Sequence record: NC_073064.1
Reading direction: 5' to 3' (one strand)
DNA: 45,904 bases
Source of the DNA: Escherichia phage vB_EcoS_PTXU06
Shown here: positions 11,368 through 42,463 of the stretch, piece by piece
Position numbering within the stretch: the first letter of the stretch is position 1
How the letters are laid out: every line of letters begins with the position of its first letter
The notes under the pieces: model-generated
Told to the model about the DNA's origin: nothing
The model's input: the letters and a program-made list of their open reading frames with translations, nothing else
Database searches by the model: none
Position numbers and translations under genes: made by a program

Positions 11368-12072
11368 ATGAAACTTACTAAAGCAGAATATGACGCGTTG
11401 CCGGAAGGTATGAAGGCGCTTTTTGTTGCCGATGGCGACGGGTATAAATCAACGTTCATGACCGCAGAAGAAGTACAGGCGGAAATCAAGGGTCTGAAAG
11501 AAAACAACGCGAAGCTGGTGAGCGAGAAGAAAGCAGAAGCCGAACGCCGCGCCGAAGCTGAGCGCCTTGCGAAAGAGAAAGAGGAAGCCGCCGCGCGCAA
11601 AAATGGCGACCTCGAAGCGATCGACAAGTCCTGGAAAGATAAGTTTGCTAAACACGAAGCAGACACATCGGGAAAAATCGAAGCCTACCGCAAGCAGATC
11701 CACGATCTCACCATCGGCAGCGCTGCCAAAGACCTGGCGTCGAAGCTGTTCGGCAAGAATGCGGGCATCATGCAACGCCACGTAATGGACCGCCTGACGC
11801 TGGAAGACGGCGAAGACGGCAGCTTGAAAGTGCGTGTCTTGCAGGATGGCAAACCGTCCGCGCTGACGATGGAAGAGCTTGAAAAAGAGTTCCGTAATAA
11901 CGCCGATTTTGCATCCGTCCTGGCTGGCACGCCAGCCGGTGGCGCGCCTAGCAAACCGACGCAGGTTGTCGAAGATGTGAAGTCGAAAATCACTATGGGC
12001 CATAGCTTCGGTATCACTGACCTTACGAAACAGGCGGGGGATATCATCGCGAAGATGGGCGACGACGAGTAA
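11368..12072 (+). CDS. putative head scaffolding protein
   Basis: Start at the ATG with AGGGGGA RBS (track start 11254 lies in the intergenic promoter region); charged coiled-coil-like sequence; immediately precedes the major capsid gene. Confidence 0.55.
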   Translation: MKLTKAEYDALPEGMKALFVADGDGYKSTFMTAEEVQAEIKGLKENNAKLVSEKKAEAERRAEAERLAKEKEEAAARKNGDLEAIDKSWKDKFAKHEADTSGKIEAYRKQIHDLTIGSAAKDLASKLFGKNAGIMQRHVMDRLTLEDGEDGSLKVRVLQDGKPSALTMEELEKEFRNNADFASVLAGTPAGGAPSKPTQVVEDVKSKITMGHSFGITDLTKQAGDIIAKMGDDE

Positions 12073-36270: not shown

Positions 36271-38562
36271 CTACTTGCGGTAGCGATACATGCAATCGCC
36301 TTCGGCGGCAAGTGGGAAGCCTTTCGCCCATACAGGCAGGTCGCACATCAGCGCGCAAAGCTCCTCGGTCGTGTAGTCGTCGGTGTCGGGCACTTCTGTG
36401 ATCAATTCATCATGCACCGACAGGACGATTTCATACCCCGCAGCTTCAACGCCGGGCATGGACCATGCGAGAATATCGCGACACAACGCCTGCACTATGT
36501 TCTCCGTAAGTTTGCCGCCGTAGGTATACTGGAAGCCCCACTGGCGCGTCGTCTGATTCTCGCCCTGGTATTTGATGCGGGTGCTGGTACGCTTCTTGCC
36601 GGTGTCTTCGTCAATCTCGGTCGTGACAGACAGTGCGATGCCTGGGTAGCTCATGATGCGCCCTGACGGCAACTCAATTTTAAGCCACCACCCTGCCGCG
36701 TTCGGGTCGTCGCGCTCCTCGTCGAAGGTTGGGTCATGCTTCGCCTTCGTACGGACAATCTTGAGCGCTTTTCTACCGTCCGGGCGAACGTTCGCGCCAG
36801 CCCAGTATGCTTTGCCCGGATTGCGGATTGCACACAACACCGCGTCCTCCAGCTCGGCCCAAAAGGCTACCGTCTTCGGGTGCGCCTCACGCCACATACG
36901 TTTGATTGCGTCACAAGTAAGCCATACGTTTTTCGGCAGTATGTATGTTGGGCGCTCGTCTTTCTTACCTGGCTTCGGCGGGCGTTTCGCTTCGTTAATG
37001 CGGGCGTACTCATAGCCGCGTTTCGCCGCCGCCCAAATGTGATCCGGGAACGTGCCTTTCATCACGTCCGCCATAGTGTAAAGGTCGAGGCCCAGGTTTT
37101 TAGCGAACTGCAAGAACGCCGCGACGCCGCCACCATAGCCCAGTCCCAATTCGCACGCCTTACCAATCTGGCGTAAGTCCTTGCGGTTGGCTTTAATGTA
37201 ATCCGGGTCAAGGCCGAACATCTTACCGGCAGTCTCGCAATAGATATCGCGACCGGACTTAAAGACCATTAACGCTGTTTTCTCGCCAGCGATCCAGGCA
37301 AGGCCGCGCCCTTCCACGTTGGAGTAGTCCGCTACGACAAACTTCTTGCCCTTAGCCGGAATAATGCACCCGCGAACGGTCGAGGCGGTCAGCTTAGATA
37401 TGTCATACGCCCAGTGCGCTGTCCCACGTAACAGGGAGTTGATGCCGTTGGTGAGCATGTGCGACCGGACCCAAAAAGCGACGTCGCTCTCGCCTTCGCG
37501 GCGCTTAATCTTCCCTTCGTGGTCGTCGCTATACTCGCCGCGTGCCAGGTTTTGCGGCTGGAAGCCTTTACCAGCCCAGCGCAGCGTGCGCTTTGCGCCA
37601 CCATACTGAAGACACCCACGGCGGCGACCATCTGCGGATAGGCCATTAACTAGCGGATTGTACTTAGTCGATGCCGTTGATGACGCACCGAGGCGCATTT
37701 CGATAAGCGCTTTGCCTTCGTCGGGGAAGTCCGGGTCTTCAAGCAGGTCGTTAAGTGTGGATTTCTGCGCGTTGTGGATTGTGAACGCCGGGGCGATATC
37801 ACGCAGGATTGGCAGGAAGTCATTGCCTGTCAGCTTACCGCCAAATCGCTCCCAGGCTTCTTCCTTCAATTCTTCCTTATGCGCCTGCACCGCTTTGATC
37901 GCGGCGTTCGCCAGGTCAACGTCCACATAGAAGCCGCGGTCGTTGATCAACTGGTCGATAAGCAGGATTTCATCTTCCTTCGGAGTATTACCCCAGTCCG
38001 GTATGCGCCAGTAGACTTCACGCATTGCGATAATATCCAGCGCGGCATAGCGCAGAAATTTGGCCCATTCTTCCGGGTGAGTCTCGCGAGTGTAGCGGCG
38101 TATTTTGTAGGTCTTAGGGGTAGGCTTACAGAATCGTTTAATCAGCGCCTTACCTGCCTTATCCTTCGCGTGCTCTGCGTCAACGCCCAGCACCTGGCAC
38201 TGCATATCGAGGCTACCCGGCAGCGCGTGGCGAAAGGCCATAATCATGGTGTCTTCGATCTGGCTTACCGGCAGGTCGATGCCCCACTTCTCACGGATAA
38301 CCAGGCGGTCAAACAGGAGGCCGTTAGCCATCACTATTTTTGCTTTCTTGCGGGATACATGGCGGAGCGCCTTGCGCAGTTCACGCGGCATTGTGGGGGA
38401 TTCAGTGCAATCCCATGTCTGCACGCGGCCTTCGTCGATGGCGTAGGTGCAAATCATAATCTCGGTGGTTTGGTGCTCCGCGTAGGCGTACGCCCCAACT
38501 TTCTTCAGGTCCACCCCGCTAAATGTCTCGGTATCGAGAAACAGGCGTTCGAAGTCTTTCAT
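36271..38562 (-). CDS. DNA polymerase I (family A) with 3'-5' exonuclease domain
   Basis: 763 aa; N-terminal exonuclease motif LFLDTETFSG (D-x-E); C-terminal polymerase motifs including LSVHDELITEV. Confidence 0.9.
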   Translation of the reverse strand: MKDFERLFLDTETFSGVDLKKVGAYAYAEHQTTEIMICTYAIDEGRVQTWDCTESPTMPRELRKALRHVSRKKAKIVMANGLLFDRLVIREKWGIDLPVSQIEDTMIMAFRHALPGSLDMQCQVLGVDAEHAKDKAGKALIKRFCKPTPKTYKIRRYTRETHPEEWAKFLRYAALDIIAMREVYWRIPDWGNTPKEDEILLIDQLINDRGFYVDVDLANAAIKAVQAHKEELKEEAWERFGGKLTGNDFLPILRDIAPAFTIHNAQKSTLNDLLEDPDFPDEGKALIEMRLGASSTASTKYNPLVNGLSADGRRRGCLQYGGAKRTLRWAGKGFQPQNLARGEYSDDHEGKIKRREGESDVAFWVRSHMLTNGINSLLRGTAHWAYDISKLTASTVRGCIIPAKGKKFVVADYSNVEGRGLAWIAGEKTALMVFKSGRDIYCETAGKMFGLDPDYIKANRKDLRQIGKACELGLGYGGGVAAFLQFAKNLGLDLYTMADVMKGTFPDHIWAAAKRGYEYARINEAKRPPKPGKKDERPTYILPKNVWLTCDAIKRMWREAHPKTVAFWAELEDAVLCAIRNPGKAYWAGANVRPDGRKALKIVRTKAKHDPTFDEERDDPNAAGWWLKIELPSGRIMSYPGIALSVTTEIDEDTGKKRTSTRIKYQGENQTTRQWGFQYTYGGKLTENIVQALCRDILAWSMPGVEAAGYEIVLSVHDELITEVPDTDDYTTEELCALMCDLPVWAKGFPLAAEGDCMYRYRK

Positions 38563-38729
38563 TGCTTTATCCTCACTACGGCGTCAGCGCTGCCGATCAT
38601 GGAGAAGATGCCGTCGGACAGGGCGATTTCTTCGCCGTTGTTGCGAATCTCGGCAACTGTGAAATATTCCCCCAGTAGCTTGGACCATACTTGCATTCCG
38701 ACTTTTACTTCGCTGGCTTTAATACGCAT
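38559..38729 (-). CDS. small hypothetical protein (56 aa)
   Basis: Stop overlaps the polymerase ATG (ATGA); below the ORF-track cutoff. Confidence 0.3.
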   Translation of the reverse strand: MRIKASEVKVGMQVWSKLLGEYFTVAEIRNNGEEIALSDGIFSMIGSADAVVRIKQ

Positions 38730-38744
38730 TTTTCATTGTCCTAT

Positions 38745-38768
38745 TAAAAAGCCCGCATTAAGCGGGCT
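38745..38768 (-). terminator. rho-independent terminator (minus strand)
   Basis: AGCCCGC-TTAAT-GCGGGCT hairpin followed by TTTTT on the minus strand. Confidence 0.55.
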
Positions 38769-38787
38769 TGAATAGTGGGCTTTGCCC

Positions 38788-39573
38788 TTAACGGCGGCGA
38801 CGTTTACGTGGTGCTTCGTCTTCGTCGTCTTCGTCCTCATCTTCGTCATCGCGGGACTTGCGGCGTTTGCGAGGTTTTTCATCTTCGTCTTCGTCGTCGT
38901 CATCGCGGCGCTTGGATTTCTTGGACTTGCGCGGCTTGTCATCTTCATCATCGTCATCACGACGTTTTGACTTCTTAGCCTTGCGCGGTGCTTCGTCTTC
39001 GTCGTCGTTGTCCAGGTCTTCATCGGAGCAAGAAGACCCGCCACCGCCGAAGGATTCACCGTCATCACGGAAGCGTAAACCCAGCAAGCCAGCACCGAGT
39101 CCCTTGCCGTTGGTGTTGTTCCACGCCCAAATATCAAGGGACACGTTGCAATAACAACCGGAGTAGATCTCCTGGCCTTCAATCTCGTCGCCGTCGATGG
39201 TCAGACCCTGTTCAGTCTGCTTCTCGCCGAGTGACGTTTGAATGATAGGCTGTTTGAACGATTTGGCGTTGATGTACAACATGCCTTCGAATTCTTCGGT
39301 AACTTCGTCGCGCTCGTCACCGTCGCGAACTGCACATTCCTTAGAATCCTGGGCATAGTGGCGGTCCATCCACTTATCGGCATTCTTCTCGGATTTCAGC
39401 TTGTCGGTGAGCACTGCGCGTGCTGCCGCTTCCACTTTGTCCACCTGCGGATCTTCTTTATCCAGAAGAATCACGGCACGGTATGCCGGTTTTTGCCCAT
39501 CCTGTTTAGGGGTATCACGTTCCCAAATTTTCAGGAAGCATACGCGCACATTTTTCAGGTTGACTTTAGCCAT
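38788..39573 (-). CDS. putative ssDNA-binding protein (DUF2815-like) with repetitive mixed-charge C-terminal tail
   Basis: Start at ATG 39573 with GAGGA RBS (MAKVNLKNVRVCF...); three tandem RRDDDDEDE-KPRK-KKSK repeats at the C-terminus. Confidence 0.45.
   Translation of the reverse strand: MAKVNLKNVRVCFLKIWERDTPKQDGQKPAYRAVILLDKEDPQVDKVEAAARAVLTDKLKSEKNADKWMDRHYAQDSKECAVRDGDERDEVTEEFEGMLYINAKSFKQPIIQTSLGEKQTEQGLTIDGDEIEGQEIYSGCYCNVSLDIWAWNNTNGKGLGAGLLGLRFRDDGESFGGGGSSCSDEDLDNDDEDEAPRKAKKSKRRDDDDEDDKPRKSKKSKRRDDDDEDEDEKPRKRRKSRDDEDEDEDDEDEAPRKRRRR
38820..39010. repeat. about 3 tandem ~60-bp coding repeats
   Basis: Repeated CTTCGTCGTC...CATCGCGGCGCTTG...CTTGCGCGG units read directly. Confidence 0.6.
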
Positions 39574-39663
39574 TTTCCAATTCCTCATTTTCACATGTAT
39601 CGGGGTAATTGGAAGCCACCCCGTTCGGCTTGGTTGCCAATTTACTTGGTTGCGCCTGAGCGG

Positions 39664-39906
39664 TCAAGCATTTTCATTAAAAAGATTTCTGGTAACGTAG
39701 TTGGTAGCGTTCTCGATCCAGCTTAATGGCGGGCGGTCGCCATGTCTCGCGATCCACGCCACGGCAATGGTGCTGTATCCATCGTCCAGCCATTGGGTCG
39801 GATGTCGAATCATCCACGCCACCATTAACACGCCTTGCACACAATGCAGGATAAAACCCAGCGCGCCGAGCAAAAACATCAATAAGATTGCGAATACTTT
39901 ATTCAT
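39664..39906 (-). CDS. small membrane protein
   Basis: 80 aa; N-terminal TM helix (VFAILLMFLLGALGFIL). Confidence 0.45.
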   Translation of the reverse strand: MNKVFAILLMFLLGALGFILHCVQGVLMVAWMIRHPTQWLDDGYSTIAVAWIARHGDRPPLSWIENATNYVTRNLFNENA

Positions 39907-41329
39907 TGCTTAAATCCTCGTCAGTAGCTTCTGACCACGCAGGGCGCGGGTCGTCAATGGGTGCTAATACAGGTTTAGCCGGTGCGCGTGTGATTTTATC
40001 ACACAGCTTCGCCCATACTTTCGGTTTCTCGTCCTTCAGCACCTTCTCGGCATCCGTAGGACTGAGTAATGTTTCTTTGTACATAACATCGCGCTTGATC
40101 CGGGCCTTCGTGAAGATCTCAATCACTTCGCTTTCGTCCGCCCACTTGCGGATCCCTTCCTTACCGGCAACCATTTTGAGGCCCAGCGATTCGCCATCGC
40201 CAGCCATAACCGCCTTGAATACCGCGGACTCGATAGCCTTGATGTGCTGGCGCATTGCGTCTAAACCTTCATACGCCTTGCGCAGTTCCGCGGCAGTCAT
40301 AGCGCCGGAGGCCGCTTCTTTCTTGCCACGCTTCGCACGTCGTGCCGCTTTGCGGGCTTCGCGGGCCATATTGCGGTCATGATTGGCGCATTCTTCCTCT
40401 GTCGCAATACTCACGTCGTCGCCCAGGTCTTCGTCTGTTGCCGTTGGTGGGGTCATCGTGTCGATTGCAGCCTTAGCGCGGGCGCTACACTGGTCCGCAA
40501 ATCTGCACCACTGACACGCATCAACGCTCGGTCGGAAGTCGGCACGGGTGAGTCCCTTTTTGCCGCGGGCGTACGCTTCCAGGGCGGCGATAGCACGCTT
40601 GGACGCAAACTTCGCGAATATCTCCAGGGCTTCTACCGAAATATCCCACTCCGACGCCCCGCCGCAATACGGCTGGAAGATAACCAGGCGCACGGTCGTG
40701 ATGTCGTACATGGATTGCAGCTTGCGCAGCAGGCCGAGCGCATACAGCATAAGCTGTTTGTTTTCTTTCGCCTCGACCTTATGCCGCCCCGTCTTCAGGT
40801 CGCCAACAATCAGCATGTACGTGCCGTCGGTCTTCTTCATGACCATGACCATATCCGCAGTGCCGAACGTCTTAACCCGGTTGCCGTCGATCTCGAAGCC
40901 AGAGTGTAGGACGCGGGTGAGATCGGCGCGCATCTCAAGCTGAACAAACTCCGCCACTTCGAGGAGCGGTCGCCAGTGGTCGATGTACGCGTCGCACTGT
41001 TTCACCATGTCGTCGTTGACCAGTACGCCGCCTTTCGGTGCTTTCGGGTGCGCCTTTACCGGCCCCTTACCTTCGTTCTCGACGTAGCACCCTTTGTACG
41101 TTTTCGCGGTTATCAGCTTCTCACCGGCAATAATGCGGTTTAGCACGACTTCCGATACTGTGTGCATACTCGTACCGTTAATAGCCGCTTGCCCGGATTC
41201 GTTCGGGATACCCTGTTCTACCACCAGGGCGGCGGGGCAACCCATCCATTTTTTAGCACCGGATGGCCCGAGTAATGAATGTTCCGTATTACTACCGGAT
41301 TGTGTTTTGCGCTTCGGTTTAATCGCCAT
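39899..41329 (-). CDS. PD-(D/E)xK nuclease, Cas4/RecB-like with Cys cluster (DUF2800-like)
   Basis: 476 aa; N-terminal HSLLGPSGAKKWMGCP; C-terminal cysteine cluster C...CQWCRFADQC. Confidence 0.55.
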   Translation of the reverse strand: MAIKPKRKTQSGSNTEHSLLGPSGAKKWMGCPAALVVEQGIPNESGQAAINGTSMHTVSEVVLNRIIAGEKLITAKTYKGCYVENEGKGPVKAHPKAPKGGVLVNDDMVKQCDAYIDHWRPLLEVAEFVQLEMRADLTRVLHSGFEIDGNRVKTFGTADMVMVMKKTDGTYMLIVGDLKTGRHKVEAKENKQLMLYALGLLRKLQSMYDITTVRLVIFQPYCGGASEWDISVEALEIFAKFASKRAIAALEAYARGKKGLTRADFRPSVDACQWCRFADQCSARAKAAIDTMTPPTATDEDLGDDVSIATEEECANHDRNMAREARKAARRAKRGKKEAASGAMTAAELRKAYEGLDAMRQHIKAIESAVFKAVMAGDGESLGLKMVAGKEGIRKWADESEVIEIFTKARIKRDVMYKETLLSPTDAEKVLKDEKPKVWAKLCDKITRAPAKPVLAPIDDPRPAWSEATDEDLSNE

Positions 41330-41947: not shown

Positions 41948-42463
41948 TTAATCTTCCAGTTCGAAATAGGTTTCGACGATTTCTTTTAGCTCTTTGTGGA
42001 AGTCTTCGACGTCGTCATCTTCCAGCTTGGCGATTGATTTGATCTCGAACGATTCCAGCAGGTCGTCGAATTCGTCGTTCGCATCGTCGTCATCACCACC
42101 GGCGATAATCGCGGCATACTGTTTGATTTCGTCGCGCATCTCCGCCAGCGGATCGGCATCTTTCTTACCTTTGCCTTTCGCCGGTGCTTTCTTAGACTTA
42201 GCCGGTTTTTCGTCTTCGGCATCGTCGTCGTCATCTTCTACGACTTCTTTTTTAGCCTTACCTTTCGCCGGTGCTTTTTTAGCTTTAGCCGGTTTTTCGT
42301 CTTCGGCGTCATCGTCGTCATCTTCGACAACTTCTTTTTTGGCCTTAGACGGCTTCTTGTCTTCCTGTTTACCAACGGCAGCGCCAACGGTTTCATAATG
42401 CTTTGCAATGGTTTCCAGTGCTACTACGCCGCGAGTGATCAGGTTTACGATTTGCTCAAACAT
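41948..42463 (-). CDS. acidic repeat protein (possible early protein)
   Basis: Start at ATG 42463 with GGAGA RBS; two tandem ~32-aa Lys/Ala- and Asp/Glu-rich repeats; very acidic C-terminus; first gene downstream of a strong candidate promoter. Confidence 0.5.
   Translation of the reverse strand: MFEQIVNLITRGVVALETIAKHYETVGAAVGKQEDKKPSKAKKEVVEDDDDDAEDEKPAKAKKAPAKGKAKKEVVEDDDDDAEDEKPAKSKKAPAKGKGKKDADPLAEMRDEIKQYAAIIAGGDDDDANDEFDDLLESFEIKSIAKLEDDDVEDFHKELKEIVETYFELED
42167..42356. repeat. 2 tandem ~96-bp coding repeats
   Basis: Read directly; encode KKEVVEDDDDDAEDEKPAK(A/S)KKAPAKGK repeats. Confidence 0.65.

Follow-up and report, generated by a model that had tools for sequence, protein, structure and literature searches.

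An alternating-charge tail of variable repeat number on the single-stranded DNA-binding protein of a Dhillonvirus

What is a tail of alternating acidic and basic blocks, closed by a run of arginines, doing on a member of a protein family characterized by an acidic tail with an acidic/hydrophobic tip? The question is raised by a gene on the minus strand (38788 to 39573) of a 45,904-nucleotide (nt) stretch of DNA from Escherichia phage vB_EcoS_PTXU06 (NC_073064.1), the whole of which is called the window here. The gene product counts among the SSBs (binding proteins for single-stranded DNA, ssDNA) of the T7 gp2.5/Enc34 type as found in Dhillonvirus phages, and ssDNA binding is predicted for it from its sequence. 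Membership in the SSB family is already known, as several RefSeq records carry this annotation. New is that the tail departs from the family in one tested feature, a poly-basic end after alternating-charge repeats. The explanation favoured here, which as a whole we judge to have slightly better than even chances of being correct, is that of a replicative SSB with a conserved docking motif, to which an electrostatic, multivalent extension varying by recombination or slippage is appended. The gene and the parts of its product are the following:

38788..39573, minus strand: coding sequence of the phage SSB, 261 amino acids (aa) plus stop (open reading frame (ORF) and translation, PF10991, phrog_112).
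39037..39573, minus strand: predicted OB-fold ssDNA-binding domain of the T7 gp2.5/Enc34 type, residues 1-179 (AlphaFold2, Foldseek, alignment to Enc34).
38992..39036, minus strand: end of a Gly-rich hinge and proximal acidic, putative docking motif, residues 180-194 (SSCSDEDLDNDDEDE), inside the Pfam model.
38791..38991, minus strand: block-polyampholyte extension, residues 195-261, in basic/acidic units of about 18 aa or 54 nt (charge blocks, Tandem Repeats Finder (TRF)).
38791..38814, minus strand: basic C-terminus APRKRRRR, residues 254-261, invariant in that all in-frame Dhillonvirus alleles examined carry it at any copy number.

The Pfam family PF10991 (Enc34_ssDNA-bd, formerly DUF2815) matches the protein with 108.4 bits (cut-off 26, E 4.2e-31) over residues 3-193 and profile positions 2-173 of 176, and phrog_112 ('Gp2.5-like ssDNA binding and annealing protein') matches it with E 3.6e-51. 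Sequence matches to the solved DUF2815/Enc34 chains 4klk, 4jg2 and 5odj were obtained at E values of approximately 1e-10 to 1e-11. The AlphaFold2 model, for which the input alignment comprised 65 sequences, has per-residue confidence values (pLDDT) of 95-98 across residues 1-170 and helices at residues 43-59 and 62-72. With this model, Foldseek retrieved 4klk (E 6e-13) and 5odl (E 3e-12), then 5odj and 4jg2 (E to 2e-10), all four with template modelling (TM) scores of 0.64-0.77 when normalised by target length; T7 gp2.5 (1je5) was the next match after the Enc34/DUF2815 structures (E 4e-7). In the Enc34 protein ORF6, ssDNA is contacted by Trp150 (stacking), Arg112 (phosphate), Tyr156, Lys46, Tyr30 and Tyr37 (PMC5686142). 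The HMMER alignment to 5odj places W149, K104 and F13 at Trp150, Arg112 and Tyr30, which are thus conserved or conservatively replaced. Canonical bacterial SSB (PF00436) gave no match at E <= 0.01, bacterial SSB structures matched the model by fold only at E > 1, and the C-terminus is poly-Arg and not DDDIPF-like. Neither Pfam nor PHROGs yielded a match to gp32-type families. The SSB-like character that a first, sequence-only reading of the window had assigned to the N-terminal 170 aa or so is borne out by the Pfam, PHROG and structural matches and by the predicted fold, with the SSB family covering about 180 aa.

The C-terminal 82 aa (residues 180-261) contain 37 D/E and 28 K/R, so that 79% of the residues are charged and the net charge is -9. 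They are arranged in the order SSCS-DEDLDNDDEDE-APRKAKKSKRR-DDDDEDD-KPRKSKKSKRR-DDDDEDEDE-KPRKRRKSR-DDEDEDEDDEDE-APRKRRRR, i.e. in four acidic and four basic runs (APRKAKKSKRR, KPRKSKKSKRR, KPRKRRKSR and APRKRRRR). The alternation of acidic and basic repeats noticed in the sequence-only reading is therefore real, but there are four blocks of each sign and not three tandem repeats. The sign of the charge switches only seven times along the tail compared to 31.8±3.9 times after shuffling, and seven or fewer switches occurred in 0 of 20000 composition-preserving shuffles. The autocorrelation of charge has maxima at lags of 18-20 and 38-40 residues. On the DNA level, TRF reports a 54-nt period, and a repeat search found four registered 54-nt copies with 61-100% identity; registered copies in the extension lie at 38816/38825, 38885 and 38939, and a 44-nt pair is located at 38804/38981. 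AlphaFold2 gives the extension pLDDT values of 50-60 and no secondary structure, and it is predicted to be disordered. A short helix is modelled on residues 184-187 (DEDL), within the proximal acidic motif. This motif is invariant among Dhillonviruses and is reached by the Pfam match, which ends at residue 193. The acidic runs, formerly read as plain repeat elements, are of two kinds: the first is the conserved, putative docking motif of the family, and the repeats are appended after it. The acidic/hydrophobic tip typical of the family is absent here, with SDEDL lying internally, numerous basic residues in the tail and APRKRRRR at the C-terminus; tails of related clade members finish in (E/A)(R)PRRRRR.

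Because the first protein search favoured tails (candidates were chosen by shared words), 1.84 billion cluster representatives were searched with the N-terminal domain only. Among the 147 relatives obtained (50%-identity representatives; median tail length 24 aa), 130 have no basic run in the tail, nine have one and eight at least two. Tails of mixed charge are therefore in the minority within the family and are, as had been proposed, unlike the purely acidic tails of other SSBs. In a combined set of 244 proteins, 75% of the tails without basic run end in a hydrophobic or aromatic residue. In a rough neighbour-joining tree of 245 domains, mixed-charge tails are found in the clade of the query (one to six basic runs, PRRRRR-type tips), in a second large group with three to 11 basic runs, which yet keeps the acidic/hydrophobic tip (DDDDVA, DDDDLV, DDEIPF), and scattered elsewhere. 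The flavour of the unit differs between lineages (DRSSRRSRRSR-DDEDEDED in Labrenzia, EKPSRSRRSR-DDDDED in another lineage and KPRKSKKSKRR-DDDDEDD here), while the layout of an acidic run, x-Pro and a basic run is shared by all of them. Multi-unit tails persist in divergent lineages, the domains of which are 30-50% identical. The net charge of the tails in the 244-protein set has a median of -8 without basic run and medians of -8 to -16 with two to 11 runs; it changes by -1.2 per basic run and is negative in 243 of the 244 tails. Since it is nearly independent of unit number, the units can be regarded as approximately charge-neutral additions to a negative tail typical of the family.

When the tail alone (78 aa) was searched against 5.8 billion proteins, nothing was found at E <= 1e-3, and it has no Pfam match. 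In PHROGs, a single weak match to phrog_15004 ('SSB'; positions 301-392 of 421) was obtained with E 4.5e-4. The proposal that phrog_15004 is the family of the tail-bearing relatives was rejected, as all of these belong to phrog_112. Related tails gave weak low-complexity matches to phrog_9528 ('nucleotidyltransferase'). The weak matches to both PHROGs hint at similar charged segments in other phage DNA-metabolism proteins. Within the window, long segments of acidic and basic blocks were found only in the SSB tail and in the product of 41948-42463 (minus strand), a protein of the replication module that belongs to phrog_3127 (unknown function). It carries a second mixed-charge repeat of about two copies at 42159-42347 (KKEVVEDDDDDAEDEKPAKAKKAPAKGKA; TRF: 87-nt period, 2.2 copies, 88% matches). 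A third charge-block match, at 11524-11643 (plus strand), looks like a coiled coil. In distant loci with tail-bearing SSBs, a search for possible co-condensing partners detected no gene with mixed-charge repeats other than the SSB gene.

The number of repeats differs between close relatives, as the sequence-only reading had anticipated. Among Dhillonvirus isolates with >90% nucleotide identity, counted mainly in GenBank phage records (a scan of IMG/VR gave eight loci), the tail has one to four basic blocks:

welsh: SSB of 202 aa, one basic block (...DEDLDNDDEDEAPRKRRRR).
EP23: SSB of 224 aa, two basic blocks.
HK578: SSB of 240 aa, three basic blocks.
Envy: SSB of 236 aa, three basic blocks.
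SECphi4: three basic blocks.
This window, SECphi18 and most others: SSB of 256-265 aa, four basic blocks.

Of 57 Dhillonvirus records, sampled at even spacing, 13 carry deletions (51-177 nt) when compared to the window, and in no record is the excess over the window larger than 12 nt. All in-frame alleles retain the first acidic block as well as the APRKRRRR at the end. The 177-nt deletion of welsh equals the spacing of the 44-nt direct repeat (82% identical) at 38804 and 38981, which suggests unequal recombination or slippage between repeat copies. Such variation would also be expected if the extension were a neutral or near-neutral low-complexity expansion, in which the internal units are a harmless spacer and only the acidic docking motif, and perhaps APRKRRRR, matter. 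Isolates with one, two, three or four basic blocks are viable, deletions of at least 51 nt are present in about 13 of the 57 sampled records, the indels are in register with the DNA repeats, and the units are nearly charge-neutral, all of which would fit a spacer. Substitutions in the tail are under purifying selection, however. Summed over 66 Dhillonvirus pairs, the ratio of nonsynonymous to synonymous change (pN/pS) reaches 0.115 for the tail, where pS is 0.35, compared to 0.066 for the domain, so that the tail is selected and not drifting. Moreover, the four-block form makes up about three quarters of the sampled records with no substantially longer form among them, and tails of three to 11 units have been kept in divergent lineages and in an alphaproteobacterial prophage. 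We regard the neutral expansion as the main rival, though on the improbable side.

Further evidence for a replicative SSB with a docking motif comes from the genes next to it, which are encoded on the same strand in the order exonuclease, 80-aa protein, SSB, 56-aa protein and polymerase:

39899..41329, minus strand: DUF2800 PD-(D/E)XK exonuclease, upstream neighbour (PF10926, E 1.7e-66; phrog_69).
39664-39906, minus strand: 80-aa hydrophobic, probably membrane, protein (phrog_11211, unknown function), overlapping the exonuclease stop by 8 nt.
38559-38729, minus strand: 56-aa ORF between SSB and PolA (phrog_10102).
36271..38562, minus strand: family A DNA polymerase (PolA), downstream neighbour (PF00476, E 2e-16; phrog_17, E 1e-129).

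The proximity of a family A polymerase, which the sequence-only reading had expected, was thus found. Eight related loci, one of them in a prophage of Labrenzia (an alphaproteobacterium), have exonuclease, SSB and polymerase in the same order. The C-terminus of the exonuclease (...EATDEDLSNE) contains TDEDL at 39908-39922, which resembles the SDEDL of the SSB; a further TDEDL is located internally at 40421-40435, within ATDEDLGDD. Among all ORFs of at least 50 aa in the window, the pattern [DE][DE]DL[GDSN] occurs three times, in the exonuclease and the SSB only. In seven further lineages, the exonuclease likewise ends in a sequence similar to that with which the SSB tail begins, and changes in the motif affect both proteins jointly:

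Exonuclease C-terminus ATDEDLE, SSB tail start ATDDDLE.
Exonuclease C-terminus ATDEDLS, SSB tail start ANEDDLD.
Exonuclease C-terminus VTDDDLSD, SSB tail start VSDDDLDD.
Exonuclease C-terminus DEFDDLD, SSB tail start DEFDDLD.
Exonuclease C-terminus TEFDDD, SSB tail start DEFDDE.
Exonuclease C-terminus RFTDFSDEDE, SSB tail start KFKDFGEDDE.
Exonuclease C-terminus AQSDFSQF, SSB tail start AKQDFKGF.

By local BLOSUM62 scores over the eight lineages, which are phylogenetically related and provide acidic, low-complexity peptides, the true pairing of exonucleases and SSBs was the single best of 40320 permutations, and the own SSB gave the best score for seven of the eight exonuclease tips. As the exonuclease tip both mirrors and co-varies with the SSB motif, the two peptides probably dock on the same co-evolving site. 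In T7, gp4 and gp2.5 both have acidic C-terminal tails that bind the polymerase (PMC12593628; PMC13402713), and in Enc34 crystals the SSB tail occupies the beta-sheet groove of an adjacent SSB molecule. By analogy to these, the partner here could be PolA or the SSB core. At residues ~295-345 of the exonuclease, the internal TDEDLGDD is followed by an EEE-containing stretch and a basic run (REARKAARRAKRGKKE), an arrangement (motif, then acidic, then basic segment) also seen where the SSB tail begins. The exonucleases of the other lineages checked lack the internal TDEDL.

Taken as a mechanism, the favoured explanation would read as follows. The SSB would be replicative, act within the module of DUF2800 exonuclease, SSB and PolA and probably be expressed from its own promoter and terminator, with the OB-fold domain (residues 1-179) binding ssDNA. 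The disordered 82 residues would fall into three zones, the first of them the Gly-rich hinge. The second, SDEDL and the adjoining D/E patch, would be the counterpart of the acidic/hydrophobic C-terminal tip of the family and would serve both in competition for the cleft and in partner docking; its site might be a basic patch on the polymerase, in analogy to the T7 gp2.5 and gp4 tails on gp5, or the DNA-binding cleft of the SSB itself. The third zone would consist of the nearly charge-neutral units of about 18 aa, each with a P-R-K-rich basic run followed by seven to 12 D/E, and always end with APRKRRRR. In an electrostatic, multivalent manner, its basic blocks may touch either the backbone of DNA or acidic blocks, be it within one SSB molecule or between neighbours. 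In this way, the extension could tune auto-inhibition, the selectivity for ssDNA over double-stranded DNA (dsDNA) and cooperative self-association, while the net charge would stay at about -9. Unit number would shift when the 54-nt DNA repeats undergo slippage or recombine unequally. A stronger version of this, which we put forward tentatively as rather improbable, is that the tail is a selected multivalent 'sticker' array, which arose or expanded repeatedly in T7-type SSBs, lets SSB-ssDNA complexes self-associate (through high cooperativity or in condensate-like replication foci) and was accompanied by a re-wiring of replisome docking, the canonical acidic tip turning into an internal short linear motif common to SSB and DUF2800 exonuclease and the acidic/hydrophobic end giving way to poly-Arg. 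In that case, the number of units would serve as a dial by which replication or recombination behaviour can evolve rapidly. Runs of nine to 12 D/E followed by Pro, as present in the tail, are similar to sequences that have been reported to destabilise E. coli ribosomes during translation. Such destabilisation at the D/E-Pro runs could yield a ladder of tail-truncated SSB isoforms.

The basic blocks might instead provide a second binding mode (for duplex, ss/ds junctions or RNA) on an SSB that acts mainly as an annealing or recombination mediator paired with the exonuclease. This would agree with the annotation of phrog_112 as an ssDNA-binding and annealing protein, with the gene lying near that of the exonuclease and with the motif that both have in common. 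Furthermore, the Enc34 SSB binds dsDNA when its acidic tail is removed (PMC5686142), from which it follows that tails control duplex affinity and selectivity in this family. The annealing annotation has been transferred from T7 gp2.5, though, and with a net charge of -9 and longer acidic runs flanking each basic run, the latter should be neutralised. An annealing role appears quite unlikely as the principal explanation, and it overlaps with the favoured one rather than excluding it.

Several points weigh against the favoured explanation, i.e. the replicative SSB with a docking motif and a functional multivalent extension. Three of the ssDNA-contacting residues of Enc34 lack an aligned counterpart in the comparison to 5odj, with Tyr156 corresponding to N155 (W151 nearby), Lys46 to A30 (K28 nearby) and Tyr37 to T21. 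Plaques are formed by phage welsh, which has one basic block, and by EP23, which has two, and the internal units are therefore dispensable. The co-variation was scored on a small number of lineages with common ancestry, using peptides of low complexity. The canonical docking tip of T7 gp2.5 requires a free C-terminal aromatic residue; the motif of the SSB is internal and may therefore work differently. In a literature search, no study of the SSB tail or of the motif common to exonuclease and SSB was found.

The SSBs of Dhillonviruses are also known from work on phage defence. SECphi4, SECphi6 and SECphi18 SSBs are published triggers of Retron-Eco8 (for SECphi4 by escape mutations and co-expression), and mutations that lead to T56P or affect the intergenic region upstream of the gene allow escape. 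SSBs trigger several other systems as well, and the query clade has lost the acidic/hydrophobic end that 75% of the canonical members carry. The tail could accordingly be imagined as a counter-defence or host-interface adaptation, which hides the SSB from tail-reading host proteins or sensors or targets it to nucleoid or membrane. Of the listed escape mutations of SECphi4 and SECphi18, however, none is in the tail, with T56P affecting the OB domain and the others lying upstream of the gene, the C-terminal tail of the T7 SSB is dispensable for Retron-Eco8 activation, and nothing indicates that any sensor reads this tail. Such a role is considered very unlikely indeed.

The limits of the gene are supported by the sequence around it and by related records. 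The start codon ATG is located at 39573-39571 with a Shine-Dalgarno-like GAGGA upstream, and the stop codon TAA at 38790-38788. The SSB region matches 159 phage records with 85-97.5% identity, nearly all of them E. coli Dhillonvirus (HK578-like siphoviruses), and the SSB coding sequence annotated in Escherichia phage vB_EcoS_Zar3M has the same coordinates as the ORF in the window. A GTG at 39594 (268-aa ORF) was rejected as start, as the ATG at 39573 has the Shine-Dalgarno sequence and agrees with all annotated homologues. Overlapping ORFs in other frames, e.g. 38858-39154 (plus strand) and 38733-39182 (minus strand), were rejected as genes; across the tail, shifted frames stay open because runs of GAN, AAR and CGN codons contain no stops in these frames. 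Two SSB versions in the databases (phage vB_EcoS-22664B1, MZ234008, and one further protein) shift to the +1 frame in or just before the tail and run on to ...KGKAHYSSPLNAGFLIGQ. These are probably sequencing errors or true frameshift mutants rather than the result of a programmed event. Between 32600 and 45700, the window is colinear to the base with Zar3M (OM262541.1) over 13.1 kb without indels; 672 differences, mostly at third codon positions, were counted, and the Zar3M record contains 130 N's in this stretch. Such colinearity is unusual for two independent isolates of about 95% identity.

Two putative transcription signals flank the SSB gene:

39639..39667, minus strand: sigma-70-like promoter candidate, TTGACC-17-TAAATT, upstream of the SSB gene (consensus scan).
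38745..38769, minus strand: terminator-like hairpin, AGCCCGC-TTAAT-GCGGGCT followed by TTTT, directly 3' of the SSB stop (read by eye).

The promoter candidate is weak on its own, since the consensus scan found one such site in the region compared to 1.4 expected. Retron-Eco8 escape mutations of SECphi phages are found in the intergenic region upstream of the SSB gene. The hairpin is visible by eye but was not listed by a terminator pattern scan; the record of phage CS16 has a 'terminator' feature annotated under the match to the SSB region. The promoter-like site together with the hairpin and T-run suggest that the SSB gene is a transcription unit of its own. The 56-aa ORF downstream has exactly the sequence of the '56aa protein of unknown function' of SECphi18 and SECphi6, and Table S2 of Stokar-Avihail et al. 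lists a frameshift at E21 of this protein among mutants that escape defence. In the Labrenzia contig AXCE01000011 (81938-94963), a prophage-like module has genes for a Prim-Pol primase, a DUF2800 exonuclease, a DUF2815 SSB, a 620-aa protein and an SNF2 helicase in this order. The 620-aa protein occupies the position of the polymerase and has no Pfam match, and the tail of the SSB carries eight units (DRSSRRSRRSR/DDEDEDED) that are nearly identical.

Phage SSBs occupy a central place in replication and recombination and trigger several bacterial immune systems, among them Retron-Eco8, DARNA, Hna, Hachiman and AbpAB. The Dhillonvirus SSB is in experimental use as an immune trigger, but its tail is omitted from the published analyses. 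The natural alleles with one to four units constitute an allelic series for studying the control of cooperativity, ss/ds selectivity and partner recruitment by a charge-patterned tail. In addition, the findings predict a previously unreported interaction of exonuclease, SSB and partner in the widespread DUF2800/DUF2815/PolA module.

Among known systems, the ORF6 SSB of Enc34 (PDB 5ODJ, 5ODK, 5ODL) is similar in belonging to PF10991, in its OB-fold with a long capping helix and equivalents of Trp150 and Arg112, in a disordered tail that opens with an acidic segment and in its place in a phage replication module. Its tail is different, comprising about 29 aa, of which 16 are acidic, and being purely acidic with an acidic/hydrophobic tip, whereas the SSB of the window has its acidic segment in an internal position, with 67 aa of alternating blocks up to a poly-Arg end behind it; the domains are only about 21-22% identical. 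T7 gp2.5 is of the same structural class, and its acidic tail competes with ssDNA and docks the polymerase. Both systems have a second replisome protein with a look-alike acidic C-terminal tail, namely gp4 in T7 and the DUF2800 exonuclease here. In contrast to the SSB of the window, to which sequence identity is not detectable (11-14%), T7 gp2.5 has neither basic blocks nor repeats or copy-number polymorphism, and its purely acidic tail ends in an essential C-terminal Phe.

The SSBs of SECphi4, SECphi6 and SECphi18 are orthologues of about 95% identity with the same T56. That of SECphi18 has the same four-block tail, while that of SECphi4 differs in having three basic blocks. In the paper on the Retron-Eco8 trigger, only residues 1-186 were displayed and the remainder was termed 'flexible C-terminal residues'. 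The SECphi4 SSB is cited in a later paper as binding retron msDNA, and the papers on DARNA, Hna and Retron-Eco8 structures rely on the SSBs of T7 or other sources or are silent on the tail.

More distant parallels are found outside the family. T4 gp32 has a basic N-terminal B-domain with a (Lys/Arg)3(Ser/Thr)2 'LAST' motif for cooperativity and an acidic C-terminal A-domain that binds partners. It thus combines basic, K/R/S-rich and acidic peptides, and the basic runs described here (RKSKKSKRR) resemble LAST motifs; its fold is unrelated, however, and its basic and acidic elements are present as single copies at opposite ends of the protein instead of alternating in tandem at the C-terminus. 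The linker and acidic tip of E. coli SSB and the tails of nucleolin, NPM1 and HMGB-type proteins are likewise disordered and exert electrostatic control of DNA binding, cooperativity and condensation, and the eukaryotic ones among them, which are proteins with D/E tracts and K blocks, show a comparable blocky patterning of acidic and basic residues. None of these is homologous to the tail of the Dhillonvirus SSB, and the linker of E. coli SSB is rich in Gly, Gln and Pro and uncharged.

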